From positions 6,038 to 70,037 of the forward strand of contig CAYFPM010000003.1 in assembly GCA_964345045.1 (NCBI GenBank): DNA of 64,000 nucleotides, in the 5' to 3' direction. Of the stretch, positions 6,294 to 54,284 are shown piece by piece. The notes under the pieces were generated by a model, which did no database searches, had not been told where the DNA came from, and worked only from the letters and a program-made list of their open reading frames with translations. The stretch is from an uncultured Gammaproteobacteria bacterium (GTDB lineage: Bacteria > Patescibacteriota > Patescibacteriia > Magasanikbacterales > UBA922). How positions within the stretch are numbered: position 1 is the stretch's first letter; each line of letters opens with the position of its first letter. Made by a program: the position numbers and the translations under genes.

Positions 6294-6322
6294 AAACTAC
6301 TGAGCTGACACTCAGTTTTTTG
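6294..6322. terminator. A-tract/hairpin/T-tract terminator (AAACTACTGAGctgacaCTCAGTTTTTTG)
   Basis: ACTGAG/CTCAGT stem followed by a T6 run, directly after the stop of the 4877..6259 gene. Confidence 0.5.
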
Positions 6323-6408
6323 TTCTATAGACAAAGTTTTGACTTAAATAATTCGACTATCAATGCTAATAATTTTGCTCAATTTAGCTAAATTTTGACC
6401 AAAATGTC

Positions 6409-6579: not shown

Positions 6580-7650
6580 ATGCGAAACTTCGCGCTCGTC
6601 ATCGCCATTCTGATCACGTGTGTCGCCACCATCAGTGGCTGCACCAAGAACAAGACCGAGGAGAAGCAGAAGTCGATCACCACTTCTGAGAGCTACTTCG
6701 GAGGTGACTGGCTTTCCGCAGTCCCCGACTGCGATCCCCTGAACGCAGCCATCAACCCCGATGCCATGGAGGTCGAGGACGGGATCGACAACAACTGCAA
6801 CGGCCTCATTGACACGGCCGAGTTGTCGGTCGACGTCCTCACCGACATCGAGAGACTCGGGGAGGTGCGCAAGCGCTTCTTCGACAGTGCCTTTGTCCGC
6901 AATGGCCCCCCGAAGGAGGAGGACGGCTGCTACAGCGGAAGAGCCTTCATTCGGGCCCTCTGGGCCATGGCCACCGACGAGAAGAGCGTCAAGAACGCCT
7001 CCGGCCTGGTCGGCGAGGCCTACAACGTCGAACTCAAGCTTGTGCAGAATGCCGATCTCTCTTCCAAGGACTGGGAGGAGATCTGGTACCAGACCGCGAA
7101 GCACATGCTCCCGGAACTGGTCGCCTATTGCGAGCCCACGCTCGACGTGGGCAACATGAGGTTCACGGCCACTTCGACGGGTAGCGGAGGCTTCCACGAA
7201 GTCTACTGGCAGATGAACGAGCTGGAGCTCGTTCACAAGCTCTACCCGGGCACGGAGAGCCCAGAGGACGCGGCCGAGACGATCGTACTCTTCGGGAACC
7301 TGCCGTACCCGATGAGCCCTGACAAATATCGCCACTACCACGAGCTTTCAAAGGTGGTCTTCCGCCACCTGGTCGAACTCAAGCAGAAAGGGAAGGACGA
7401 CTTGCCCTACCTCATGAAGTTCTTCCCGGTCGGAGATGGTTCGCCATCCGATTGGATCGGGCCGACACTCGAAGAGAAACTCTGCAAGGAAACGGACCGC
7501 ACCATCGAGGAGCGGGAAAAGTTCCTCGCCGTCGTGAGACGCCGTGTGAACAACAACGTCCTGTTTCAAAAGATCCGAGACAGGGACGACGGCAGTCCGA
7601 CATTCCCGCCGAACATGTCGGTAGAAGACTACTGCCGAGTGTGGAAGTAG
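6580..7650 (+). CDS. GC-rich predicted lipoprotein with a MopE-like Cys/Asp putative metal-binding motif
   Basis: RBS AAGGAG then ATG at 6580. Lipobox VATISGC. Motif DCDPLNAAINPDAMEVEDGIDNNCNGLID resembles the C-x-D-x-N-A-x-x-P-G-A-x-E-x-C-D-G-x-D-N-x-C-x-G repeat common in Myxococcota proteins. Strong GC and codon-usage contrast to flanks. Confidence 0.6.
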   Translation: MRNFALVIAILITCVATISGCTKNKTEEKQKSITTSESYFGGDWLSAVPDCDPLNAAINPDAMEVEDGIDNNCNGLIDTAELSVDVLTDIERLGEVRKRFFDSAFVRNGPPKEEDGCYSGRAFIRALWAMATDEKSVKNASGLVGEAYNVELKLVQNADLSSKDWEEIWYQTAKHMLPELVAYCEPTLDVGNMRFTATSTGSGGFHEVYWQMNELELVHKLYPGTESPEDAAETIVLFGNLPYPMSPDKYRHYHELSKVVFRHLVELKQKGKDDLPYLMKFFPVGDGSPSDWIGPTLEEKLCKETDRTIEEREKFLAVVRRRVNNNVLFQKIRDRDDGSPTFPPNMSVEDYCRVWK

Positions 7651-7798: not shown

Positions 7799-7829
7799 AA
7801 AAAAACTGAGTTAGTACTCAGTTTTTTTG
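7799..7829. terminator. A-tract/hairpin/T-tract terminator (AAAAAACTGAGTtagtACTCAGTTTTTTTG)
   Basis: Perfect 8-bp stem, 4-nt loop, T7 run; A-tract upstream makes it potentially bidirectional. Confidence 0.5.
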
Positions 7830-7841
7830 TTTAATTAATTC

Positions 7842-7958
7842 CTCCCCTATTAGGGGAGGCTAGCCCGCCTGCCTTGCTTCCCGATTTATCGGGATGCGGG
7901 CAGGGTGGGGTCAAATCGTCTACCAGCCCCCCTCTGTCTCCCCCTAATAGGGGGAGAA
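7842..7958. repeat. palindrome-bounded intergenic element (CTCCCCTATTAGGGGAG ... GC-rich hairpin ... TCTCCCCCTAATAGGGGGAGA)
   Basis: Two near-perfect palindromes in mutual inverted orientation enclose a structured GC-rich core (cccgat/atcggg and cctgcc/ggcagg pairings). The same boundary sequences recur at 41921 and 42342 around a DUF559 gene. Confidence 0.5.
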
Positions 7959-7979
7959 CTTTATTTCAATTTTTCGAAT

Positions 7980-8912
7980 CTACCCAATCCCCCACAATTC
8001 CTTCATCTGTTTTATCCCTTCTTCCAAATTAATCTTTGGCTCCCAGCCAAGCATTTCTTTGGCTCTGGTGTTGTCTGCTCTGGCATAGCGTGGATCTCCT
8101 GCTCTAGGATCTATGTTTGTAGTTGGTCCACCAATCAACTCAGCCAGTTGATTGACTGAGTATGGACTATTGTTTCCAATATTTATCATTTCCCCTTTGC
8201 CAACTTTGTCACTAGTCATAGCCAAGATATTGGCTTCTACAGCATCGTCTACATGAGTATAGTCACGGAAGTATTCTCCATCTCCACAAATAGTCATAGA
8301 TTCACCATTTTGCAATTGGCGCAAGAACTTGCCAATTACTAGGGCATAAGCTCCTTCCGGATCCATGTGCGGACCATAAATATTAAAATAACAAAGTGAA
8401 ACCGTTTCTAATCCATAAAGACTAGAAAAAAGTCGGCAGTATTCTTGACCAGCCAATTTTTGCAAAGCATAGGGGCTAAGCGGATTCTTCTTCATATTTT
8501 CTTTTAGAGCAATTGGTTCGTCTGATCCATAGACCGAAGAAGAAGTAGCAAATATAACTCTTTTTACTCCAGCATCTTTGGCAGAAAGAAGCACATTAAG
8601 AGTTCCATTCAAGTTGTGATCATTGGTAATATCCGGATGCTCAACAGAATAAGGTACCCGTGGCACAGCCGCTTCGTGAAAAACACCATCAACTCCTATT
8701 ACTGCTTTTTTGACATCTTCCAAATTTCTTATATCTCCTTCTATATATTCCACACCGTCAATTTTTCTTTCTGGAAATTTTTCAAAATCTCCAGCCGAAA
8801 AATTATCAAGCACGCGCACATCATGTCCGTCACGCTTTAATCTTTTTACAATGTTGGTACCGATAAACCCGGCACCGCCTGTTACTAAGTATTTCATATT
8901 TTTTTTAGTCAT
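7980..8912 (-). CDS. NAD-dependent sugar nucleotide epimerase (GalE/WbpP-like)
   Basis: MKYLVTGGAGFIGTNIV Rossmann motif, about 310 aa SDR-type epimerase. Confidence 0.8.
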   Translation of the reverse strand: MTKKNMKYLVTGGAGFIGTNIVKRLKRDGHDVRVLDNFSAGDFEKFPERKIDGVEYIEGDIRNLEDVKKAVIGVDGVFHEAAVPRVPYSVEHPDITNDHNLNGTLNVLLSAKDAGVKRVIFATSSSVYGSDEPIALKENMKKNPLSPYALQKLAGQEYCRLFSSLYGLETVSLCYFNIYGPHMDPEGAYALVIGKFLRQLQNGESMTICGDGEYFRDYTHVDDAVEANILAMTSDKVGKGEMINIGNNSPYSVNQLAELIGGPTTNIDPRAGDPRYARADNTRAKEMLGWEPKINLEEGIKQMKELWGIG

Positions 8913-8986
8913 ACTGAGCGGAGCGCAGCGGAGTCGAAGTATCCCGTTTATAACGAACGAGATCCTTCGCTAGCGCTCAGGATGAC
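8908..8986. repeat. MITE-like hairpin repeat with GTCAT(A/C)CTGAGCG terminal inverted repeats
   Basis: Left arm GTCATACTGAGCGGAGCGCAGCGGAGTCGAAG, right arm CCTTCGCTAGCGCTCAGGATGAC. Member of a family also present at 13035, 14023 and 46265. Confidence 0.5.
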
Positions 8987-9012: not shown

Positions 9013-10392
9013 TTATTTTATAAAAGGACTCCCCACCGCAATTATACCAAATCCGGCTTTTTGCAAATCATCGTACTTGTGTTGCAGCATTCTACGGCCA
9101 TCCATTAACAAAGTATTTGGTTTGGCGTGTTCTATAAGCAAATCTCCCAAACTACGAAATTGTGGCCAGTCGGTGGCTATTATTACTACATCGGCTTCGG
9201 CGATAGCTTCTTTTTCAGAGTTAGTATAAACCATTTTTTCTGACTCTGGAAAATTGTATTTGAAAAAATCCATAGCAGCCGGATCATAAGCTTGAATTTT
9301 TTTCACTCCCGAACCAAGCAAAATCTCGGCGATGTTTAAGCTTGGTGAGTTGCGAGTATCATTGGTATCTCGTTTGAAAGCTAGTCCAACCAAGGCTACG
9401 GTTTTGTCGCCCCACTCTATTCCGGCATCACGACCAGCTCTATCCAAAAAATTTTGCAATTGTCTTTTGTTGGCCCCATATGTTTCGTCTACAATCTCGG
9501 AATTTTTGCCAGCGTCACGCAATTGATGAGATAGGGATCTGGCATCTTTTATAAAACAGCTACCTCCGGCATAAAGACTATCATAAAATCCCCAATTACC
9601 AATTCTTTCATCACCAGTAATTATTTTACGAAGCTGTTCAAAATTTACATCGTCAAAAGCTTCGCTAGTGCGACCAATTACATCAAAACAAACGGCTAGT
9701 TTGTTGAAAAGATAAAAATTGGCCAACAGCTTACCGGCAGCAGATTCTTTTGGGTTTACTTCTAGATATTTTACAGTAGCCGAACTATAGAATCTGTCGT
9801 ATACGCCTCGCATTATGGCAAAATCTTTTTCACTCCAAGCTCCTACTACTACTCTGTCGGGACGAATGGAACCTTCTATAGCTTTGCCCTCTACCAAAAA
9901 TTCTGGGTTAGAAACTACACCATAATTTTTTACCCCCGCTTCGTCCATAATTTTGGCAGTTTGATCTACCATATCTATGGGCACGGTGCTTTTGTTTACT
10001 AGTACTACGTATTTTTCTTGGCTCCCATTATTTCTTTCTTTCAAAACTGTGGCCAATTGTTCGGCGGCTTTGTGATAGTATTCCAAATTGCTTTCGCCTG
10101 TCTCTCCAATTTCTGGAGTTGGCAAACACATAAAAATAGCATCAACATTGTCTAAAAAGGCTGTTACTTCCGAATAATCGGTAGTAAAACTAATGCGATC
10201 TTTGTGTCTTTGGAGTAGCTCTGCCAAACCTTCTTCGTAGATTACAGAATCTATTTGGTTTTTATCTCCCGAGCCTAATTTTTTTATTTTGTTTTCGTCT
10301 ATATCAAAAACCAAAGTAGTGTGTCCACTATCTGCAGACACAGCTGCCGAACAAGCGCCTACAAAACCAGATCCAATATATAAAATATTCAT
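9013..10392 (-). CDS. ugd: UDP-glucose 6-dehydrogenase
   Basis: MNILYIGSGFVGACSA N-terminal NAD fold and UDP-glucose/GDP-mannose dehydrogenase family length. The ORF in the track is extended upstream to 10566, but the ATG at 10392 matches the family N-terminus. Confidence 0.8.
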   Translation of the reverse strand: MNILYIGSGFVGACSAAVSADSGHTTLVFDIDENKIKKLGSGDKNQIDSVIYEEGLAELLQRHKDRISFTTDYSEVTAFLDNVDAIFMCLPTPEIGETGESNLEYYHKAAEQLATVLKERNNGSQEKYVVLVNKSTVPIDMVDQTAKIMDEAGVKNYGVVSNPEFLVEGKAIEGSIRPDRVVVGAWSEKDFAIMRGVYDRFYSSATVKYLEVNPKESAAGKLLANFYLFNKLAVCFDVIGRTSEAFDDVNFEQLRKIITGDERIGNWGFYDSLYAGGSCFIKDARSLSHQLRDAGKNSEIVDETYGANKRQLQNFLDRAGRDAGIEWGDKTVALVGLAFKRDTNDTRNSPSLNIAEILLGSGVKKIQAYDPAAMDFFKYNFPESEKMVYTNSEKEAIAEADVVIIATDWPQFRSLGDLLIEHAKPNTLLMDGRRMLQHKYDDLQKAGFGIIAVGSPFIK

Positions 10393-10750
10393 AATATAAA
10401 TGCTTGAAATGCCAAAAAAGCTAGAGAGGCTTTTAAGGCTTTTATGGGGGATACTATAGCAATTTGGATGTTTATTTTCAAGGGTTTTTGATAAATAGTT
10501 CTTGGTTCTTAGTTCAAAGTTATTAGTTAAGAGTACAGCTAAAATAATGCTAATTAGAAATTGCAACGGTCTCTGCCTTCGCTAGATTCACTATTACATA
10601 TTGCCAACTGCCTATACCCCAAAAAAACACGAAGGCCGGGCTGCTTTTTGCAACTCGGCCGGGCAGATACTGCCTTTCTCAGCATCTGCGCGTTTACCCA
10701 CTCACCTATGTCTACATCCGTTTTCACTATTTGCCCCTCCCAGAGCATGT

Positions 10751-11419
10751 TTACTCGTTGTCGTCTCCACCCAAAACCTCTACAAGTGGCACATCGCGAA
10801 CAGTGTCGGCCACTTGTACATCTAGTATCTCCGGGACTCCCGGGTCGGTCTGCACATCTGCCTCAAATGGCGGATGCAGCTCCTCGAGCCGACGACCTGG
10901 GACTGTATCCTTGTTCGCAGTCATTCTCCTCTGGGTTCTTCGGCTGGCACTGGCTAGCGGCCCTGGGTGCCGCTGGTCTGGCTCGGTGGTGCGCCTGGCT
11001 TGCCTAATTAGGAATTGAGCCAATTCTTCGTCTATGTCTGGGTCAAACCCTAGGCCCTCTCTATGGGGGGCTGGCGGGGCGACCAAACCAGGTGGTGCTT
11101 TGGCTTCTTCCATGTCACTTAGGATCTTGCCTAGCTCTGGAGCCGGGACAATATCTACAGGAGTGACCTCGCGCAAGTAGGGCGGCAAGCTGCTAGACTC
11201 TCTGGGCTGAGCCGGCATAGCCAAACCTTTGGCTAACTCTTGGGGCGAACTTGCATTCGCCCTGCCGACCATAGCCAGCGAGGTAAGCGCTGCCAAGAGA
11301 GCAACAACAGCTGTACCAATCAGGCTTTGTCGGCGAGATAGTACGCCGAGGAACCCTAGGGAAAGTATGGTGGCCAAAGCCACCAGTGTGGGTAACACTA
11401 GGAAACGCAATCTTTTCAA
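10751..11419 (-). CDS. GC-rich membrane-anchored proline-rich protein (unknown function)
   Basis: TTG start preceded by AAGGGAAG. Two N-terminal TM helices, then a Pro/acidic low-complexity tail. GC-rich codon usage unlike flanks. Confidence 0.45.
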   Translation of the reverse strand: MKRLRFLVLPTLVALATILSLGFLGVLSRRQSLIGTAVVALLAALTSLAMVGRANASSPQELAKGLAMPAQPRESSSLPPYLREVTPVDIVPAPELGKILSDMEEAKAPPGLVAPPAPHREGLGFDPDIDEELAQFLIRQARRTTEPDQRHPGPLASASRRTQRRMTANKDTVPGRRLEELHPPFEADVQTDPGVPEILDVQVADTVRDVPLVEVLGGDDNE

Positions 11420-11652
11420 AACGCTTCCCTTCCTTTCTCCACCATTTCGGTGGCCTAGGTATTCTTTGGCAAAAATAGCTAGGAGACAGAAATGGTGTGA
11501 ATTGTTACCTATTTTCAGTATGGCTTTATTTTTTCTTTTTTGTCAAGAGCTTTGGGCCAAAATATTGACTTTTGGCTAATTTTAGTGTAGGTTTCAAATA
11601 ATCTAGTTTGAGTAAAAAAGCTCAAACAGAAAGCTCTTTTGAGAGGTAAAAA

Positions 11653-12885
11653 GTGAAACTTACCATCACCAACCCCGACCACGCCTCCTACATCACCAGC
11701 CTCGACAACCAAAGATTCGCCGATGTACTCGTGGGAGAAGCCCCGAACATTCACTTCAACGATGGCAGGGCGGACAACCCGGTCATGCAGCTGTTGTGGA
11801 CAGATCCCCAGACTATCGTAGATATCTGCACCCTGGCCCTGCCCAAGGCAGAGCAAATGGAGACGTCCACCCACGTGAAACAAGAACGCCAGGCCGCCAT
11901 CTATGTATTGATGGTCGATGCATATCGGCGACTGTGGCAAGCAGAAACCTCTACTTCTAGGAAGATGTCTCTAGATGCGCAAGTCGCAGATATCTTCGAA
12001 AAAGCTCAGAGCCTGGTCGAGAAACTCGAGGAACACGATGTTGACAGAGCCAATAGGCTCACCGGATCTATGAATCACAACCGTATCCAGATGCTGGTTT
12101 CTACCGGCAAATACCTAGATGCTACCAAGCTCCACGACGAAAACGCTCGCCTCGCAAGAGAAGTGAATGATTTCCCCACCTTCGACCGAGAAGAACTTCG
12201 TGCCGCCGTACACGCCGCCAATCACCAACTGTGTTTTGGTGATCGCAGCGATATGGTCGGAGACCCAGACAGGTTGATAGATTGGGACTTGGCCGTACGC
12301 CAGGCTCAAGAGACAGCTCTGCATGTTGCAAGTCAATATGCAGACCAAGAAGAACACATCGCCATGGCCATCGAGGCACTTCTCTACGCTATTCGAATGG
12401 ACTGGTTGTCTAGGAGTGATCGCGACAACACGGCCTATATCCAACAAATCTCCGCCATGATGAGCGGGAACGAAGGCTTGCAAAAAGCCTTTGGCTGGAT
12501 GCACACGATCCTGGGGGCAGCCCAACTCATTCATTCCTTCAAGAATTGGGGGGAGGAGGTAATCGTTGAAGCCGAAAAAGCCATCGCCAGAATGAAGGAA
12601 ATCGGGGACAACGAAGATATCCCCATGCCCTACCGCACCGAAGCCATGCTCTGTATGGCGCAGCTGTCCAGCGCTCTAGGCCATTTCATCAGCCAAAACA
12701 GGTTCGGTTCCCATGGAGGCGCAACCATCCCCCAGTACCCGGACAGAATGCGGGCAGCCTACGAAGAAGCTGCCTCTATCCTACAGAAGCTCCAGAACCT
12801 GCAAGGTAGCCTGGCCTGGAAGGACGTAGCCACTATCATGGACAAGAGGCACCTCCCCAACGTACTCAAGTATTGCGCGGGATAA
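11653..12885 (+). CDS. GC-rich hypothetical alpha-helical protein (410 aa, no recognisable domain)
   Basis: GTG start preceded by GAGAGG. Long uninterrupted ORF in a GC-rich island, divergent from 10751..11419 across an AT-rich 230-bp spacer. Confidence 0.5.
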   Translation: MKLTITNPDHASYITSLDNQRFADVLVGEAPNIHFNDGRADNPVMQLLWTDPQTIVDICTLALPKAEQMETSTHVKQERQAAIYVLMVDAYRRLWQAETSTSRKMSLDAQVADIFEKAQSLVEKLEEHDVDRANRLTGSMNHNRIQMLVSTGKYLDATKLHDENARLAREVNDFPTFDREELRAAVHAANHQLCFGDRSDMVGDPDRLIDWDLAVRQAQETALHVASQYADQEEHIAMAIEALLYAIRMDWLSRSDRDNTAYIQQISAMMSGNEGLQKAFGWMHTILGAAQLIHSFKNWGEEVIVEAEKAIARMKEIGDNEDIPMPYRTEAMLCMAQLSSALGHFISQNRFGSHGGATIPQYPDRMRAAYEEAASILQKLQNLQGSLAWKDVATIMDKRHLPNVLKYCAG

Positions 12886-12993
12886 CATCAAAAAAGCAAC
12901 CTACCTCTCAACCGTTCTAAAGTTTAATTAGATTTAAATTTTTAGACCGGCCCCCTTCCCTTTGTTTATAAAAAATTTGTAACCAAAGGAAAA

Positions 12994-13026
12994 CAAAAAA
13001 CTACTGATATGTTCAGTAGTTTTTTG
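12994..13026. terminator. A-tract/hairpin/T-tract terminator (AAAAAACTACTGAtatgtTCAGTAGTTTTTTG)
   Basis: 8-bp stem, 5-nt loop, T6 run, about 110 nt after the stop of 11653..12885. Confidence 0.5.
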
Positions 13027-13034
13027 TTAGTAAA

Positions 13035-13207
13035 GTCATCCTGAGCGGAGTGAGTCTGAAAGACGAACACAGTCGATCCGATGCTTGCGATACGGATTCT
13101 CCGACGCAAGGTACGGAGTCCGTATTGAAACATCGGACCGTACTGTAAACGTCGGAAAGGATCCCGGTTGAAGTCCAAAGAGATTCTTCGCTAACGCTCA
13201 GAATGAC
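13035..13207. repeat. about 173-bp MITE-like element with GTCATCCTGAGCG / CGCTCAGAATGAC termini
   Basis: Terminal inverted repeats plus a highly self-complementary core (ccgatg...catcgg, atacgga...tccgtat). The core is the reverse complement of the core at 14023..14194. Confidence 0.55.
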
Positions 13208-13245: not shown

Positions 13246-14016
13246 CTACTCACTAACAACATTCTTCGGATCTTCTCCCAAAGATTTGGTATAACCTTCG
13301 TTTCTGGTGTGGTGAGCATTGATCCCCTGCCATTCCGGATGAGCCAAACAAATACTAAGAACTTCGTTAAGTCCATAAAAACCACCTCGGGCTTCACAAC
13401 TTTCAATCAATAATCGCAAAAATTCAAAATCTTCCGGAGTATCCAAAGTCCAACGATGATTAGAAAAATCTTCTGTATTGGCTATATTAAAAAGTTTAAA
13501 CTTGTCCGGATGCTTCCAGATATAAGGCATTACGTGTTCACGCTCGGAATTAAGCTTGGCTTCTTTCCAAGCTTTTTCGAGGGCTGCAAAAGAAACCACC
13601 TCTGTATCAAGTCCATCTGGAAAAGTTGGTGGCTGAGTGTTTGATACATAATCATACTCCCCATCCAAAAAAGCTTGAATAACTCTATCTGTAACTTGCG
13701 GATCAAGCACCGGGCAATCTCCTGTAACACGCACAATTACATCGGCCTTGGACTGAATAGCAGCATGATAATATCTATCTAGCACATCTACCTCACTACC
13801 TCTATAATGTGGAATTCCTTTTTCTACTGCCCAATCGGCCAAAACATCGTCGGCATGGCTGGTAGTAGTAGCCAACCAAACATCATTTGCCAATCGAGAC
13901 ATTCTAGCTCTTTCTATCACGCGCTCTACTATGGGTTTGCCGGCTATGTCCATCATCATCTTACCTGGCAATCTGGTAGAGCCCATCCTGGCTTGAATTA
14001 TAATTACAACTTTCAT
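13246..14016 (-). CDS. CMP-nonulosonate cytidylyltransferase (NeuA/PseF/LegF, CTP_transf_3 family)
   Basis: MKVVIIIQARMGSTRLPGKMM N-terminal acylneuraminate cytidylyltransferase signature. Confidence 0.75.
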   Translation of the reverse strand: MKVVIIIQARMGSTRLPGKMMMDIAGKPIVERVIERARMSRLANDVWLATTTSHADDVLADWAVEKGIPHYRGSEVDVLDRYYHAAIQSKADVIVRVTGDCPVLDPQVTDRVIQAFLDGEYDYVSNTQPPTFPDGLDTEVVSFAALEKAWKEAKLNSEREHVMPYIWKHPDKFKLFNIANTEDFSNHRWTLDTPEDFEFLRLLIESCEARGGFYGLNEVLSICLAHPEWQGINAHHTRNEGYTKSLGEDPKNVVSE

Positions 14017-14022
14017 AAAAAA

Positions 14023-14194
14023 TTAATAAACAGTCATCCTGAGTCGCAGGTGAAGGATCCCAGTGGAAGTCCAAAGAGACCCTTTCCGACGTTTACAGTA
14101 CGGTCCGATGTTTCAATACGGACTCCGTACCTTGCGTCGGAGAATCCGTATTGCAAGCATCGGATCGACTTCGCTGTGCTTCGCTCAGGATGAC
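14023..14194. repeat. about 172-bp MITE-like element, inverted copy of 13035..13207
   Basis: GTCATCCTGAGTCGCAG ... CTTCGCTCAGGATGAC termini. The core ccgacgtttacagtacggtccgatgtttcaatacggactccgtaccttgcgtcggagaatccgtat matches the reverse complement of the 13035 copy almost exactly. Confidence 0.55.
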
Positions 14195-20521: not shown

Positions 20522-20818
20522 CTAACTTTTTGTACTCAAATAAGTTTTTAAAGCTTTCTTAATATATTGTCTACCCCAACCAATTTTAAAAAATTTTTCT
20601 CGTGCTTTTGCGTCCTCTTTATGAGAATAGGCTTCATAGTAAACTAACTTAAATGGTCTTCTTGGTGCAGTAAAAAAACTCTTTCCTTCATTGTGCTCAA
20701 CAGATCTTCTTTGTAGATCATTAGTATAACCTGTATAAAAATTACTATCTTTCATACTCTCTAAAATATAAACATAATACATACAAATGTACAAAACGTT
20801 AGACGGGATAATCAACAA
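20522..20818 (-). CDS. GIY-YIG nuclease-domain small protein
   Basis: YVYILESMKDSNFYTGYTNDLQRRSVEHNEGKS matches the GIY...YIG...R...E...N core. It is wedged between, and overlaps, the hisF-like and hisH-like genes. Confidence 0.6.
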   Translation of the reverse strand: MLIIPSNVLYICMYYVYILESMKDSNFYTGYTNDLQRRSVEHNEGKSFFTAPRRPFKLVYYEAYSHKEDAKAREKFFKIGWGRQYIKKALKTYLSTKS

Positions 20819-41907: not shown

Positions 41908-41920
41908 AAGCAAGTTGTTC

Positions 41921-41937
41921 CTCCCCTATTAGGGGAG
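41921..41937. repeat. CTCCCCTATTAGGGGAG palindrome (left boundary of DUF559 cassette)
   Basis: Identical to the palindrome at 7842..7859. Confidence 0.5.
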
Positions 41938-41951
41938 GTTAGGAGGGGTCC

Positions 41952-42338
41952 TTATATAGATAAATTTTTTATATAAAAGATTATATCATTAATAACATTA
42001 TCAAGCTCGTATTTAATTTGTTCATTCCTGTATCTCAAAACAAAATATCCGTTTTGTTGTAAATATTTTTGTCTAATTATATCTTTCTTTTTATTTTCTT
42101 TTTCTGCATGTATGTACCCATCTATTTCTATTATCAATTTCAACTCATGAGAATAAAAATCTACAATATAATAATCAATGTTAAACTGTCTTCTAAATTT
42201 AACCCCCAGTTGTTTTGCTTTTAATTTATACCACAATATTTTTTCCGCTTCAGTTTGACAAGTTCTTAGACACCTTCTTCTTTTTTTAAAAGATGCTTTA
42301 TTCTGGTAACGACCGATTGATTTCATATTGACCCCCAC
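41952..42338 (-). CDS. DUF559 (Vsr/Mrr-like restriction-endonuclease-fold) protein
   Basis: TEAEKILWYKLK ... FRRQFNIDYYIVDFY ... LIIEIDG ... RQKYLQQNGYFVLRY matches the DUF559 layout. Confidence 0.6.
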   Translation of the reverse strand: MGVNMKSIGRYQNKASFKKRRRCLRTCQTEAEKILWYKLKAKQLGVKFRRQFNIDYYIVDFYSHELKLIIEIDGYIHAEKENKKKDIIRQKYLQQNGYFVLRYRNEQIKYELDNVINDIIFYIKNLSI

Positions 42339-42341
42339 TTA

Positions 42342-42360
42342 CTCCCCCTGATAGGGGGAG
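42342..42360. repeat. CTCCCCCTGATAGGGGGAG palindrome (right boundary of DUF559 cassette)
   Basis: Near-identical to TCTCCCCCTAATAGGGGGAGA at 7938..7958, including the preceding CCCCCxCTxxxCT context. Confidence 0.5.
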
Positions 42361-42362
42361 AA

Positions 42363-43523
42363 TTAACTTTTACTCTTATAATTCTCTATAATCTGTTTAA
42401 TTGTTACATCCCAACTAAACGTAGACATAACTTTGTTGTAACTAGCTTCACCAAATTCTTTTCTTTTTTCTTCATTTGAGAGCAACTCATTAACTTTGTC
42501 AGCCAAATTTTGTTTCCTTTCTTCACTTGTATCCATTGGGGCATCATAATCAGAATTTTCCCAATCAACTAGTTTCACCAGATAGCCCGTTTTGTTATCT
42601 TCTACCATTTCCAAATAACCACCAACTCTACTGGCAACAAGTGCTTTTTTCATAGCCATAGCCTCTAGACAAGCCAAACTGGTTGATTCGGCAGTAGAAG
42701 GAAAAACCACAACTTTGGCCAAAGATAAATAACCTGGAACCAGTTTGTTTTCTACTTTTCCAACAAAATCAAAATGTTTTCTTACTCCCAATTCTTCTGC
42801 TCTTTGTTTGAGATATTCTTCTAATTGACCATAACCAACCAAGACAAATTTTACATCTTTGTTTTTTTCTACAATTTTTGGGCTAGACTCTACCAAAAAT
42901 TGTATTCCATTTTTAGGAACCAATCTTCTTACAGTCAAAACAACTTTGTTGTCTTTGTATTTTTCTTCCAAATCAGTTGGTATTTCGGTCTTTTGAAAAG
43001 TTTCTAGATCAACGGCATTTGGAATATACTTAATCTTTTTTTCACTAGTATATTTTTTGGCAATGTCTACAAAATCTTGGCAAGAAGCAATTATATAATC
43101 GGAAACTTTTAGCGAAAACCATCTGTAAAAACTATGTACCAATCCATAAACAAAATTATTTCCAGGTAGATCAAGAATACCTCTTCCCTGCAAAGTTATG
43201 GCAAATGGTTTTTTCTTGAAAATATTATAAATCCCGGCGTAAGCAGCAAACTTGTGCGAATATACTGCATGGATTATATCGACTTCGTCCAAAAACTTTT
43301 TAAGTTCTTTATAAAATTTAATCTTGCCTTTTAGCCCTTTGCCAAAATCTACTCTGGTGGTATTGAAATCATCCTGGTAATCTTTGGTGTTTTTTTCGTC
43401 TAGTGTAAACACACTTACTTCATAACCACTTTTTTGTAGATACTTGGCCAAATTGTAGGCATAAACTTCTGCTCCCCCAATTCTTGGCAAATACCAATCA
43501 ATTACAATTCCTATTTTTTTCAT
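42363..43523 (-). CDS. family-4 (GT-B fold) glycosyltransferase
   Basis: Glycos_transf_1 layout; a C-terminal domain with an EAMAMKKALVAS-type motif. Confidence 0.8.
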   Translation of the reverse strand: MKKIGIVIDWYLPRIGGAEVYAYNLAKYLQKSGYEVSVFTLDEKNTKDYQDDFNTTRVDFGKGLKGKIKFYKELKKFLDEVDIIHAVYSHKFAAYAGIYNIFKKKPFAITLQGRGILDLPGNNFVYGLVHSFYRWFSLKVSDYIIASCQDFVDIAKKYTSEKKIKYIPNAVDLETFQKTEIPTDLEEKYKDNKVVLTVRRLVPKNGIQFLVESSPKIVEKNKDVKFVLVGYGQLEEYLKQRAEELGVRKHFDFVGKVENKLVPGYLSLAKVVVFPSTAESTSLACLEAMAMKKALVASRVGGYLEMVEDNKTGYLVKLVDWENSDYDAPMDTSEERKQNLADKVNELLSNEEKRKEFGEASYNKVMSTFSWDVTIKQIIENYKSKS

Positions 43524-46252: not shown

Positions 46253-46264
46253 AGTTTAATAGTA

Positions 46265-46320
46265 TTCATCCTGAGCGTCAGCGAAGGATCTCTTCGGACT
46301 AAGGCTAGGATATTTCTTCC
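46265..46320. repeat. partial copy of the GTCATCCTGAGCG repeat family
   Basis: TCATCCTGAGCGTCAGCGAAGGATCTCTTCGGAC shares the left terminus and GAAGGATC core; no matching right arm. Confidence 0.35.
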
Positions 46321-50270: not shown

Positions 50271-53200
50271 TTATGGCACAGCTTGCGGAGTTTCTCCCGG
50301 GCAGCAGAGAGCGCCATTGTCGGTAATATAGGTGCCCTGGGCGCAGCCATAGACCAGTGGCGCGCTTGGCGTACCTAGGTAGCGCAGTTCATTGCCCGAC
50401 CAGATTTCTACTCCGGTCACCGAGTTGGCATCCGGGGCATTGTACGAGCCACCAGTCCCCGGCCATTGATCGTAGACATGGGGAGGATTGGAGACGTAGG
50501 AGCACGTACTACAAATCTGATCGCTAGGGATACCCGAGACGTCGTTGCCATCGACCACACACGAAGCCAACCAGTATCTCCCAGTTGTTGGAATAGGCGT
50601 CGGTCCTCGGTAATGCAAGAACTCGGTCCAAGTGCACATATGCGAACCATTTCCGCAAGAGACATGGGCACTGCACTGGTCGAAGTTGGTACTCCAGCTA
50701 GATGTAGCACAGCCAACCATCATGCTGTCTGGGTAGACATCTTCGGTGTTGTAACCCGAGGCGCAAGTGGCCGGAGCGAGTGGAGCTGCTGCTCCAGAAT
50801 CTGGTTCGACTCCGGTGTCCGGAGTGCCGGTGTCAGGGGCTTCTCCAGAGTCTACGCTTCCACTATCTACTGTTGCTATTCCAGAATCTAGACTCCCGCT
50901 GTCGGTGATTCCCCCATCGCTGCTTGTGAAGATTTGAGGAGTGGCTCCGTAGCAACACAGGGCTCCGTTGTAGTCAACGTAGGTGCCTTGGGCACTGCCG
51001 TAGACAGCCGAAGTAGTTAGTGTTCCCAGGTGACGCGGGTCTCCATTGGGTCCCCAGATTTCTACGCCAGTGTAAGAGTTGGTGTTGGGGGCATTGAAGG
51101 CCACCCCACCTTCTTGCCACTGATCGTGGACATGAGGGGGATTGGAAACTTGGGCGCAAGAACTACAGATTTGGTCAGTCGGAGTGCCGGGGTTGTCGTC
51201 CCCATCAGTGACGCACGAGGCTAGCCAAAAGCGTTCTTGGGTGTAGACTTGGCTGCCGCCGCTGTAGTGATTGAACTCGCTCCAAGTGCACATATGGGAA
51301 TTGTCTCCACAAGAGACAGGGGCGTCGCACTGGTTGTAACCATTGCTCCAATTCAAGGTAGAGCAACCGATCATCATGCTTGTTCCAGGAATTGCTTCCG
51401 TGGGATGACCGGGAGCGCAAGTGGCTACTGCGGGGATACCGCTATCTGCTACTCCGGCGTCTACTTGAACGTTGGCTTGGCTGGCAGCTGGGAGAGGCGT
51501 AGTGCCTGGGCAACACATGGCGCCGTTTTCTGCAAGCGATGTGGGTTGAACCGAAGCATAGGCCAAAGGACCGCTCGACGAACCCAAACGACGACGTCCT
51601 GAACCTGGCCAGAGTTCTACACCGGCTACGGCATGAGGATCTGCATGCCCAAAGCTGGTACCGTCTTCGTGCCATTGATACTCAAAGTACATGGTCGAAG
51701 CGATGTTTTGGCAGTTGTAGCTACAAATCTCGTTGGTGGGCAAAGTCACCAGGGCTTCGGGGCTGTCGTGTACACAAGAGGCTAGCCAATACCGACCAAT
51801 GGCCGGAATGGGAGTGTTTCCACGGTAGTAGACATACTCGTCCCCAGTGCACATATGTGAGTTGCCTCCGCAAAAGCCGTTGGCTCGGCACTGGTTGCGT
51901 CCTTCTGTCTTTCCACCACAACCGACCATACCGGGAATAGCGTAGTCCGGGTTAGTGGTTTTCTCGTACCCTGCAGCACAACTGGCGTAGGTGATGCTGG
52001 GGTCGAGTGTGGGCGCGGTGCAGGTGCTGGTTTCTGTTGGCGAGACGCGTGGATCTTGGGTGCAGGTCTCGGTATTGACCAGTTCGCAAACGCGGTTGTG
52101 GGTATTGTCTACTCCACACTCTAGTGGGTAGGCAGAACAAACCCAGTCGTTGTCTGCTACGGTACACGACCGCATCGGGGTACAAGTGCTGGTCTCGGTA
52201 GGAGCCAGTCCCATGGTGTCGACACAAAGAACGTCGAGCTTTTGGCAGTCTCGACTTTGGGTGCCCAGGTAGTTGCAGCGGTCGTACTCGCCACAGCTCC
52301 AGTCATCTGCCGTACAGGGATCTGTGCTTTCTATGGCCGTAAGGCTTACGGCTCCGAGTTCCCTGACTTGGTTGGTGGCGGTATGGAGGCTTCGAGCCAG
52401 GATAGTGTAGTTTCCGGGGAGTGGATGCTCTAGGCTGACTCGGTGGTGGAGTTGTCCTTGGCCACCTCCGGTGGTGGGCACGGTGTAGGGGCCGGTGAGG
52501 AACGACAGGTCGTGTCGTTTGGCTCCGTTGTAGTAGACTTCGTAGTAGGTGTAGATGTCTCCGGGGGAGACGTTATGAATTTGAAAGTACAGGTAGTATT
52601 CCGGCCAGCCGGCGTAGATGGTGGTTGGCGGGATACATTCGTACTGGTTATTTATTTGGTTGTAGGTGGCATTTCCTTCGCAGAGGATGGCGGTGCCAGC
52701 CTGGCCAAAGCCAGTGCTCGAGGGATTGAGGTTGGCATCTGATCCGCTGGTTTGCAGGTGAAACAGGCTGGTGGAATCTAGCCCGTAGATGCCGGGTAGT
52801 GTAGACGTGGCTCCGAGGTAGGAACTAGTACACAGATTAGTTCCGGTGGAACTATTCTCTAGACAGTTCGTACCAGAGGGTGGATTGTTAGAACCGCTGG
52901 TAGCCACTTCGCAAACTCCCACTCCGCTGGGGAGGCCGTATCTTCCGCCTTGGGCAGGATTGCAGACTAGGCCGCTGGCACACTCCGTATCGCTCTCGCA
53001 GTGGCCCTCGCCAGCCTGGCACTGGCAGCCGCTGGAGCAATAGTAGTAATCTCCGTTTAGGTAGCCAGTGAGGCAGCGGGTGCCATCCGTGGCTCCGGGA
53101 ACGGATGCTAGTCTAAGTGCTCCTCCCTGGGGGTTGTATGCGAGATTGGACAAACCCGTATCTACCGTATAGGAAGGAATACCTCCAAGGGGGATTCTTT

Positions 53201-54284
53201 TTATTCGGTAATCGAACTCGAAACTGGGTTGGCTGGGCCAAGAAATTCCGCCTGTTTGGACGAACACTTCGAATCTCCATTTGGTCCAAACTTGTCCGGG
53301 TTGGCTATTGGCCAAAGCGTTATGGATTGTGATATTGGGCATCACATGTTTATAGATCACCAGAGTTCCATTGGAAACGCTGCTCCAGGCTGGATCCCAG
53401 TTAACGTTGATCCAGTTGGTCTCCTCGACCCATTCTCCTCGGCTTTCTTCTCCCCCGTTATCTGTTTCTCTATGTCCTACAACTCTAATACGTACCAGCT
53501 GGTCTCTCACACGCAGTTGGATTGCGGTGTAAGGGCTTTCGGTTTCGTAGAAGTCATAAAACGGAACCAGGGGATCGGAATCGTTCCCATCGTTTGACAA
53601 ACCTGCTCCAAATCTATTTGACAAGGGCAGGCAGCTTACGGGATTCCCAGAACTGTCTTGAGTGTAATGAACGCACGTCGTCGGGTTCGGGAGGATTGTG
53701 TAAGAAGCCGTTGGATTATACAAAGTATTGTTTGAAAGATATTGATTACCAGCAACCAAGTTGGCATATCCAGATATAGGCTCAGGTTTTACGCCTACAC
53801 CATTACAATACAATGCAAAATGCAAATGCATACCAGGACTCAGCGAACATGCAGATCCAGACACATTTCCAGTATTCCCAACAACTCCAATTTGCTGTCC
53901 CTGAAAAACATACTGACCATCTTGCACAAGCACACTATCAAGATGAGCATATCGAGTTTTGCACTCACCATGATTAATCAGAACAGCATTACCATAACCA
54001 CCGCTGTTTGGGGTGGGAACAGCGACAACTCCCTCTGCTGCAGCAAGAATGGGTTTCCCAATCGAATTGCAACCCGACTCAATAAAATCTACAGCATAAC
54101 GATCGTCAGAGGTGTCCCCACCATAATCGATATGAGAAGCAATATTATATCCTCTAGTAAGAATCCAACTCTCACCACTCGGGAACGGCAATCTCATATC
54201 CGGTACAGAGGCAGAGGCTTTCACAACAAAAAGCATCTGAATCTGAATAGCCAAGAGGATGGTTGAGATAACAAACCTATACAA
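50271..54284 (-). CDS. GC-rich giant secreted protein: N-terminal M23 (LytM-type) metallopeptidase + Cys-rich central region + three tandem about 170-aa Cys-rich repeats
   Basis: TTG start with AGGTAG upstream. Signal peptide ending VKASA. M23 motifs HIDYGGD (HxxxD) and GMHLHFALY (HxH). Three repeats each contain C..SHMCT..E(F/Y)..Y ... RYWLASCV ... GALCC. Strong GC and codon-usage contrast to flanks. Confidence 0.6.
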   Translation of the reverse strand: MYRFVISTILLAIQIQMLFVVKASASVPDMRLPFPSGESWILTRGYNIASHIDYGGDTSDDRYAVDFIESGCNSIGKPILAAAEGVVAVPTPNSGGYGNAVLINHGECKTRYAHLDSVLVQDGQYVFQGQQIGVVGNTGNVSGSACSLSPGMHLHFALYCNGVGVKPEPISGYANLVAGNQYLSNNTLYNPTASYTILPNPTTCVHYTQDSSGNPVSCLPLSNRFGAGLSNDGNDSDPLVPFYDFYETESPYTAIQLRVRDQLVRIRVVGHRETDNGGEESRGEWVEETNWINVNWDPAWSSVSNGTLVIYKHVMPNITIHNALANSQPGQVWTKWRFEVFVQTGGISWPSQPSFEFDYRIKRIPLGGIPSYTVDTGLSNLAYNPQGGALRLASVPGATDGTRCLTGYLNGDYYYCSSGCQCQAGEGHCESDTECASGLVCNPAQGGRYGLPSGVGVCEVATSGSNNPPSGTNCLENSSTGTNLCTSSYLGATSTLPGIYGLDSTSLFHLQTSGSDANLNPSSTGFGQAGTAILCEGNATYNQINNQYECIPPTTIYAGWPEYYLYFQIHNVSPGDIYTYYEVYYNGAKRHDLSFLTGPYTVPTTGGGQGQLHHRVSLEHPLPGNYTILARSLHTATNQVRELGAVSLTAIESTDPCTADDWSCGEYDRCNYLGTQSRDCQKLDVLCVDTMGLAPTETSTCTPMRSCTVADNDWVCSAYPLECGVDNTHNRVCELVNTETCTQDPRVSPTETSTCTAPTLDPSITYASCAAGYEKTTNPDYAIPGMVGCGGKTEGRNQCRANGFCGGNSHMCTGDEYVYYRGNTPIPAIGRYWLASCVHDSPEALVTLPTNEICSYNCQNIASTMYFEYQWHEDGTSFGHADPHAVAGVELWPGSGRRRLGSSSGPLAYASVQPTSLAENGAMCCPGTTPLPAASQANVQVDAGVADSGIPAVATCAPGHPTEAIPGTSMMIGCSTLNWSNGYNQCDAPVSCGDNSHMCTWSEFNHYSGGSQVYTQERFWLASCVTDGDDNPGTPTDQICSSCAQVSNPPHVHDQWQEGGVAFNAPNTNSYTGVEIWGPNGDPRHLGTLTTSAVYGSAQGTYVDYNGALCCYGATPQIFTSSDGGITDSGSLDSGIATVDSGSVDSGEAPDTGTPDTGVEPDSGAAAPLAPATCASGYNTEDVYPDSMMVGCATSSWSTNFDQCSAHVSCGNGSHMCTWTEFLHYRGPTPIPTTGRYWLASCVVDGNDVSGIPSDQICSTCSYVSNPPHVYDQWPGTGGSYNAPDANSVTGVEIWSGNELRYLGTPSAPLVYGCAQGTYITDNGALCCPGETPQAVP

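Follow-up and report, generated by a model that had tools for sequence, protein, structure and literature searches.

A divergent pair of GC-rich genes in a surface-glycan cluster

Two divergently transcribed GC-rich genes within an AT-rich genome raise the question of whether they form a functional pair or arrived separately. We addressed this question for island B, a GC-rich tract in a 64,000-nucleotide stretch of contig CAYFPM010000003.1 (assembly GCA_964345045.1), which we call the window. Island B carries ORF222 (10751 to 11419, minus strand, TTG start, 222 amino acids [aa]) and ORF410 (11653 to 12885, plus strand, GTG start, 410 aa), separated by a 233-bp spacer of 36% GC (11420 to 11652). 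An earlier note on this DNA, written from the sequence alone, had described these two open reading frames (ORFs) as a divergent GC-rich pair, and the ORF listing, the sequence and GC scans bear out that description. ORF410 is a real gene and ORF222 very probably one; both are of foreign composition with translation signals of a foreign type, ORF410 is syntenic with its one homologue, and neither gene matches a known family. With slightly better than even confidence, we favor reading them as two independently acquired foreign orphan units at a variable glycan locus and not as a dedicated two-component system.

The window is ~34% GC, with most host 1-kb windows between 0.30 and 0.40, and contains three GC-rich patches, at ~6.4 to 7.9 kb (island A), 10.6 to 12.9 kb (island B), and 50 to 54 kb (island C). 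In 200-nt windows, the island B ORFs reached 0.50 to 0.625 GC, compared to 0.33 to 0.42 in the flanks. The GC content of ORF222 is 0.567 (0.68, 0.47, and 0.55 at the first, second, and third codon positions) and that of ORF410 is 0.535 (0.59, 0.38, and 0.635), while third-position GC (GC3) in the adjoining host genes is 0.31 to 0.34. The island had been drawn from 10560; the GC-rich patch is there, but it begins near 10590, and 10590 to 10750 is the noncoding 3′ region of ORF222. The GC rise of ORF410 is confined to its coding sequence, ending exactly at the start and stop codons with AT-rich DNA on either side. Relative synonymous codon usage (RSCU) of the island B genes correlates negatively or weakly with that of the host; for ORF410, r was 0.58 with the island A gene, 0.40 with the gene of its homologue P0003 (described below), and −0.17 with host genes.

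Island B lies between the genes for a UDP-glucose dehydrogenase and a CMP-sugar cytidylyltransferase. The flanking genes encode these two enzymes, an NAD-dependent epimerase, an aminotransferase, an oxidoreductase, NeuB, and glycosyltransferases, which together are a nonulosonic-acid/polysaccharide cluster. The dehydrogenase is closest to proteins from metagenome-assembled genomes of Candidatus Magasanikiibacteriota and other Patescibacteria (64% and 58% identity), and therefore the host is a bacterium of the candidate phyla radiation (CPR). Its database form has 459 aa from an ATG at 10392 (minus strand), with a promoter-like site (TTGAAA-17-TATAGT) at 10481 to 10453 on the same strand. We rejected a 517-aa TTG ORF at 9013 to 10566 (minus strand) as an overextension of this gene, whose real start is the ATG at 10392.

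Translation signals differ between island and host genes

Each of the 32 host genes checked has an ATG start, and a Shine-Dalgarno (SD) core at positions −18 to −4 is present in no more than one of them (0 to 1 of 32). An SD core precedes each of the three island genes checked (hand-computed Fisher P ~6e-4 for island versus host genes), and the two genes of island B use TTG and GTG. The earlier note had reported purine-rich ribosome-binding sites in front of these non-ATG starts, and they are present as GGAGAAAGGAAGGGAAG before the TTG and GAGAGGT before the GTG. Among the host genes, 9 of 32 have a TATAAT-like box 4 to 11 nt before the ATG, including three perfect TATAAT boxes at 6 to 8 nt; the 32 host starts include those at 2248, 15509, and 55033 (minus strand). 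The closeness of these boxes to the ATG suggests that such genes may be transcribed as leaderless mRNAs. SD-led TTG or GTG initiation, as opposed to SD-less ATG initiation, could mark recent imports in Patescibacteria, and it raises the question of how SD-led island genes are translated in these bacteria.

ORF410 belongs to a rare family found beside UDP-glucose dehydrogenase

ORF410 is clearly a real gene. Codon models built from the island A gene or the P0003 gene, used in cross-validation, scored it positive in its own frame only, and its period-3 signal was 16.9, versus 1.0 ± 0.5 in shuffles. The earlier note had proposed that a lack of coding potential or of conservation in either ORF would count against the pair; we found coding potential in both ORFs and conservation in ORF410, while ORF222 has no homologue.

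A word-indexed search of 5.8 billion clustered proteins with ORF410 returned only ORF410 itself. An exhaustive HMMER pass over 1.84 billion representative proteins identified one relative, P0003 (374 aa, E = 1.7e-8 library-wide), which aligns over its full length with 365 alignable columns and 21% identity. A two-sequence profile of ORF410 and P0003 found nothing beyond P0003, their alignment had no match in back-translated scans of JGI metagenome contigs and viral contigs, and ORF410 had none by tblastn against plasmid and phage records. P0003 itself had no Pfam match at E ≤ 10 and no usable one in NCBIfam, PADLOC, or PHROGs.

The P0003 gene is on L031, a 1.4-kb Logan contig. The gene directly upstream of it, in divergent orientation, encodes MNILYIGAGFVGACSAAVSANSGHKTLVFDIDKKKIEMLG, the N terminus of a UDP-glucose dehydrogenase that is identical to that of the window at 33 of 40 positions and lies ~100 to 135 bp from P0003. 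The ORF410 family is therefore beside, and divergent to, UDP-glucose dehydrogenase in both known cases. There is no ORF222-like sequence between P0003 and the dehydrogenase in L031. The spacers of the two loci share a 23-nt motif, AAATATTGAC(A)TTTTGGCT(A/T)ATTT, which overlaps a −35 box, and AAATATTGAC-TTTTGGCTAATTT is about equally far from the start codon in the window and in L031. The local alignment of the shared motif scored 17, versus 10.4 ± 1.7 in shuffles, a score reached by 0.35% of 2000 shuffles. This promoter motif was kept although the two proteins are just 21% identical, and a two-member family beside UDP-glucose dehydrogenase with such a motif in common merits specialist attention. 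The N terminus of P0003 aligns best from a TTG behind AAGGAG, which is its likely start and resembles in type the GTG of ORF410 behind GAGAGGT.

Both genes on L031 are GC-rich (GC3 0.675 and 0.75), and therefore GC-richer relatives with this gene order exist; they are plausible donor types for ORF410. Among reference genomes, the dehydrogenase loci closest to that of the window (L003, L004, and L005; 64 to 72% identity) have no ORF410 homologue, and their neighboring genes are unrelated and codirectional.

The earlier note recognized no domain in either protein of island B, in agreement with the lack of a family match for both in Pfam, NCBIfam, PADLOC, and PHROGs. For ORF410, Pfam and NCBIfam at E ≤ 1 gave two or three chance-level matches; there was no match to a TPR, Sel1, HEAT, or helix-turn-helix (HTH) profile and none to PDB sequences. 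The protein is predicted to be soluble, with no hydrophobic window. Structure prediction, which the earlier note had suggested, gave an AlphaFold2 model of ORF410, computed from the two-sequence alignment, that is all-alpha with 17 helices (pLDDT 67.7, pTM 0.51) and has only weak, generic structural matches. Foldseek comparison with PDB and BFVD returned only helical-repeat proteins, none at E < 1e-3 (E ≥ 6e-3), among them designed repeats, importin-alpha, STAG1, LGN, MalT domain III, Rap, NprR, and Sec17/SNAP. TM scores were highest for Sec17/SNAP (0.44 to 0.47); Rap and NprR scored ~0.21 to 0.27.

The safest statement is that ORF410 is predicted to be a TPR/SNAP-like array of helical hairpins, a protein-binding architecture. 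Like the TPR-like and alpha-solenoid scaffolds (alpha-SNAP/Sec17, MalT domain III, Rap/NprR, and LGN), it is a predicted array of antiparallel helices, 17 in this case. Unlike canonical TPR proteins, it has many helices of 18 to 26 residues, longer than TPR helices, and it differs from the scaffolds in having no TPR, Sel1, or HEAT profile match, no HTH or effector domain, and structural similarity limited to E ≥ 6e-3 and TM ≤ 0.47. We rejected an enzyme reading (alpha/alpha toroid or terpene synthase), for which there was no supporting match.

ORF222 is a lineage-specific orphan with a predicted membrane anchor

ORF222 is a lineage-specific orphan. It matched only itself among the 5.8 billion clustered proteins, and it had no relative in the back-translated scan of JGI metagenome contigs, nothing by tblastn against plasmid and phage records, and no PDB sequence match. 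Chance seldom yields an ORF of this length: in dinucleotide shuffles of the left GC-rich tract (851 nt), an ORF of at least 222 codons arose in 2 of 3000 (P ~7e-4). The period-3 signal of ORF222 was 6.3, versus 1.0 ± 0.5 in shuffles, with 0 of 300 reaching it, and was also significant in the N-terminal 180 nt. Three gene callers disagreed on its start, giving 222 aa (TTG), 215 aa (GTG), and 173 aa (ATG); the TTG alone has an SD site in front of it.

The predicted protein begins with a positively charged stretch, followed by two hydrophobic transmembrane helices (residues 3 to 27 and 32 to 54), the second of which precedes an ANA|S motif. The predicted topology is ambiguous, because each helix is bordered by positive charges. 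The tail is predicted to be disordered and is acidic (pI 4.7), with 23 prolines in 166 residues and three short predicted helices. An N-terminal membrane anchor followed by an extended proline-rich segment is also found in TonB-type linkers and other N-anchored proline-rich envelope proteins. ORF222 departs from TonB-type linkers, and likewise from single-pass anti-sigma factors, in having a second hydrophobic helix and in lacking both a folded C-terminal domain and a cytoplasmic anti-sigma domain; it has no sequence similarity to either group, and no cognate partner family is encoded nearby.

Control region and gene ends

The earlier note had proposed that the AT-rich spacer is a bidirectional control region shared by the two genes, and we found back-to-back promoter-like sites within it. 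The sigma-70-like promoter facing ORF222 (11517 to 11546, minus strand) reads TTGACA, 18 nt, CATACT, matching the consensus at 10 of 12 positions, and is a prediction from this consensus match only. The promoter-like region facing ORF410 (11560 to 11593, plus strand) has a −35 box TTGACT at 11565 to 11570 and a weak −10 box TAGGTT at 11588 to 11593; it holds the shared 23-nt motif and a palindrome, GCCAAAA-N7-TTTTGGC (hairpin 11555 to 11577). The two facing −35 boxes are 18 bp apart. The spacer had also been called host-like. Its AT richness is confirmed (0.355 to 0.365 GC in 200-nt windows), but it carries SD sites, which host genes lack, and a promoter motif shared with L031, and therefore it is not simply host-like. 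A candidate promoter element in common with island A was rejected: CCAAAAT-N-TTGAC occurs at those two sites only, but at least two matches arose in 3 of 100 shuffles, and the alignment was not significant.

The SD region of ORF222 (11423 to 11440) reads GGAGAAAGGAAGGGAAGCG on the minus strand, and the SD site of ORF410 (GAGAGGT, 11641 to 11647, plus strand) lies 5 nt before the GTG. Within its predicted 5′ leader, ORF222 has a long imperfect hairpin (11440 to 11497, minus strand; 58 nt, with 27-nt arms that are 81% complementary) and a smaller second hairpin in which part of the SD site pairs with codons 5 to 7. The leader folds at −38.1 kcal/mol (z = −4.77; 0 of 200 shuffles), and these hairpins may be regulatory. 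Rfam searches at gathering and E-value thresholds had no match in the spacer or the leaders.

Downstream of ORF222 is a terminator-like 3′ region (10621 to 10689, minus strand), with GC-rich hairpins at 10663 to 10689 and 10634 to 10660 followed by U7 at 10621 to 10627; its fold signal is weak (z = −1.97). Three AT-rich hairpins follow ORF410 (12912 to 13028, plus strand). The last is a perfect 16-bp stem at 12992 to 13028, between an A-run and a T-run (z = −6.56), and would be a bidirectional terminator where ORF410 and the host operon converge. Each gene has its own promoter-like, SD, and terminator-like signals and therefore a full signal set; these promoters and terminators would be the ones in use. 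We considered and rejected the similar hairpins at 6294, 7800, and 12998 as marks of island boundaries, as they are no more than terminators downstream of the few plus-strand genes.

Origin of island B and relationship of the two genes

We propose that horizontal transfer brought island B, a small patch of DNA, into the surface-glycan cluster of an AT-rich CPR genome and that the island would consist of two separate, self-contained transcription units. As in a horizontally acquired islet, island B differs from the host in composition and codon usage, and distribution is patchy, with no homologue at L003, L004, or L005 and one relative in the global protein searches. The ORF410 copy is probably a xenologue from a GC-richer relative that arrived complete with promoter, SD site, and non-ATG start. 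The donor of island B was probably another Patescibacterium, because the only homologue adjoins a Patescibacteria-type dehydrogenase. ORF410 would be a cytoplasmic, all-helical repeat protein of the TPR/SNAP-like kind, from a very rare family that is apparently restricted to Patescibacteria, and its gene would be driven by the conserved promoter, divergent to UDP-glucose dehydrogenase in both known cases. Its most likely role would be that of a protein-binding scaffold, adaptor, or regulator tied to envelope glycan synthesis; given the moderate confidence of the model and the lack of a Foldseek match at E < 1e-3, the scaffold role is a guess from fold class. ORF222 was probably acquired or born separately and placed between ORF410 and the dehydrogenase gene. 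From the features described above, we infer the donor type, the independence of the two acquisitions, and all functions suggested here for ORF222 and ORF410.

Could the GC-rich segments be an artifact, or old residents of this genome? Assembly chimeras or contaminant DNA joined to a Patescibacteria contig would agree with the finding that contigs of independent assemblies end within island B, at 11420 and ~11832. However, contigs from two samples of PRJEB17505 (MEGAHIT) and a Logan assembly, thus from two assemblers, match the window at 100% identity and span every AT/GC junction (overlap 415 bp), which makes a chimera very unlikely; in addition, the composition borders coincide with gene signals (SD site, start, stop, and terminator), and P0003 has the same neighborhood. 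We therefore hold an artifact to be highly improbable. Vertical descent, with ORF410 an old Patescibacteria gene beside the dehydrogenase and its GC richness a product of gene-specific constraints, has more to recommend it. Synteny and a promoter motif shared with a homologue of just 21% identity would be expected, as would a GC enrichment limited to the coding sequence between AT-rich flanks. Nevertheless, a GC3 of 0.635 against 0.31 to 0.34 in the host is unattainable from amino acid content, an SD site with a GTG start is out of place in a genome whose genes all start with ATG and have no SD, and the closest dehydrogenase loci (64 to 72% identity) have no such neighbor. We consider vertical descent improbable. 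Several observations weigh against horizontal acquisition of two independent units as well. Sharp GC limits at the start and stop codons of ORF410 are not what simple import of a donor fragment would predict; the hallmarks of mobility are missing, with no tRNA in the window, no mobility gene in island B, and no convincing flanking repeats; and the single homologue, on a 1.4-kb contig, leaves synteny at n = 2 and the absence of the partner at n = 1. The ORF410 model is of moderate confidence with no Foldseek match at E < 1e-3, ORF222 scored negative under all codon models trained on the other GC-rich genes and not clearly above its in-phase antisense frame, and a divergently encoded membrane protein with a soluble partner is still compatible with a functional link.

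That link could take the form of one coacquired module, in which the anchored protein tethers or regulates its helical partner through the tail and both are coregulated from the spacer, as in anti-sigma/sigma-like signaling, a TPR receptor with a secreted propeptide (RRNPP-like), or a toxin/immunity pair. The divergent genes with promoter-like sites 18 bp apart, the GC-rich, SD-led, non-ATG character that sets both apart from host genes, the Rap and NprR receptors among the weak fold matches, and the signal-like N terminus of ORF222 with ANA|S past the second helix are all consistent with such a module. The earlier note had likened the genes, as speculation, to sigma/anti-sigma or toxin/immunity pairs, and neither comparison held: Pfam and NCBIfam scans at E ≤ 1 found no sigma-70 region 2 or region 4 in ORF410, ORF222 had no Pfam match to a cytoplasmic anti-sigma domain before its transmembrane helix, where helices at residues 3 to 27 and 32 to 54 leave no room for one, and no toxin, immunity, or defense domain was matched significantly in Pfam, NCBIfam, PADLOC, PHROGs, or PDB sequences. 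Neither protein matched a phage family in PHROGs. No profile matched an RRNPP-type TPR peptide-binding domain or an N-terminal HTH in ORF410, and in place of an adjacent propeptide gene of tens of residues there is ORF222, far longer at 222 aa. The co-occurrence that the earlier note had suggested looking for is not seen at the sole homologous locus (L031, n = 1), which has no ORF222-like gene. In codon usage, the two genes bear no relation to each other (RSCU r = 0.19), with third positions flat in ORF222 and C-rich in ORF410, which argues against cotransfer as one module. Only the divergent arrangement and the common foreign character speak for a link, and we regard a module as unlikely. There is somewhat more to be said for the idea that only ORF410 functions and that 10590 to 11419 is a decaying foreign remnant or a very young ORF of little or no function. 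ORF222 lacks homologues in a total of ~15 billion proteins and in the contig collections searched, its codon-model scores are negative and barely apart from those of the antisense frame, its third codon positions are compositionally flat, its product is mostly predicted to be disordered, and gene callers differ on its start. Against this idea stand its improbable length, the period-3 signal that includes the N-terminal part, a strong and correctly spaced SD site of a kind rare in this genome, the well-formed N terminus with positive charges before hydrophobic helices, and rightly placed promoter-like and terminator-like signals; the lack of homologues is also weak evidence, since disordered proteins evolve fast. 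We judge ORF222 quite probably a functional gene and consider the remnant explanation unlikely, though it deserves some weight.

Two separately acquired orphan units, the reading we favor, would fit what is known of both the lineage and the locus. Genomic islands and gene exchange are documented in Patescibacteria, mostly among themselves, and transfer is credited with up to 13% of genome length (PMC12455944). Like those islands, island B is accessory DNA of deviant composition, with largely hypothetical genes, in the streamlined genome of a CPR bacterium; it differs in its small size (~2.3 kb, two genes), in having no integrase, tRNA, or repeats, and in the confinement of the ORF410 GC shift to the coding sequence. 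Direct or inverted repeats that could be insertion scars occur at chance level only (for example, a 14-nt pair at 10550/11004, expected about once), and we rejected them.

Accessory genes of atypical GC are classically found in surface-glycan loci. Island B resembles O-antigen- and capsule-type loci in having such genes in a polysaccharide cluster, and the window holds two further atypical-GC islands, but unlike the accessory genes of those loci, ORF222 and ORF410 are not recognizable sugar-pathway enzymes, flippases, or polymerases. If the favored explanation is true, the locus is one more case of foreign orphan genes in a variable CPR glycan locus, of value for annotation but unsurprising. 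A bolder proposal, to which we give a small chance, is that ORF410 and P0003 would form a new Patescibacteria-specific helical-repeat family, coupled to the dehydrogenase through a conserved operator/promoter and controlling or scaffolding surface-glycan synthesis. The SD-led, non-ATG, GC-rich envelope or secreted genes of the three islands would then be a recently imported cell-surface or host-interaction set, with an initiation mode other than that of the SD-less, partly leaderless host genes.

Other features of the window

Several contigs end inside island B. An ERR2281803 contig begins exactly at 11420, and in ERR2281802 a MEGAHIT contig and a Logan contig both stop at 11831 to 11834; the full-length ORF410 protein is absent from Logan. 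These ends may reflect strain microdiversity or a drop in coverage. An invertible promoter segment was rejected as the reason for the ends at 11420 and 11834, since there are no inverted repeats at those points.

A structured repeat resembling a miniature inverted-repeat transposable element (MITE), with terminal inverted repeats GTCATCCTGAGCG...CGCTCAGRATGAC, occurs at 8908 to 8986, 13035 to 13207, 14030 to 14194 (inverted), and 46256 to 46292; its terminal repeats gave 6 matches versus 0.02 expected. The copy at 13035 to 13207 abuts the right side of island B. Two copies in inverted orientation flank the cytidylyltransferase gene (13246 to 14016) and have a ~95-nt core that is nearly identical, with 87 to 90% identity over 119 to 139 nt. 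Rfam has no match for the 173-nt copy, whose predicted fold is at −75 kcal/mol (z = −7.1).

Island A (6580 to 7650, plus strand) is a GC-rich gene (GC3 0.80) whose product is a lipoprotein of 356 aa with the lipobox ISGC and a MopE-type metal-binding motif. The gene comes with an AT-rich promoter region of its own and with an AAGGAG site, and it lies between terminator hairpins at 6294 to 6324 and 7800 to 7830; its protein is an orphan outside this organism. Island C (50271 to 54284, minus strand) is an ORF of 1337 aa that has a Peptidase_M23 domain at the N terminus and contains internal repeats with a 654-nt period. Unusually for coding DNA, its GC content is ~0.53 at each of the three codon positions.

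An 86-aa ORF with a GIY-YIG domain (~20522 to 20782, minus strand) lies between a HisF-like gene and a HisH-like (glutamine amidotransferase) gene in the sugar cluster. Repeated G/C-rich intergenic hairpins, TTCCTCCCCTATTAGGGGAGG and CCCCCTAATAGGGGGAG, occur at 7839 to 7863 and 41918 to 41942 and at 7928 to 7973 and 42332 to 42377, respectively, and their copies are 76 to 96% identical.

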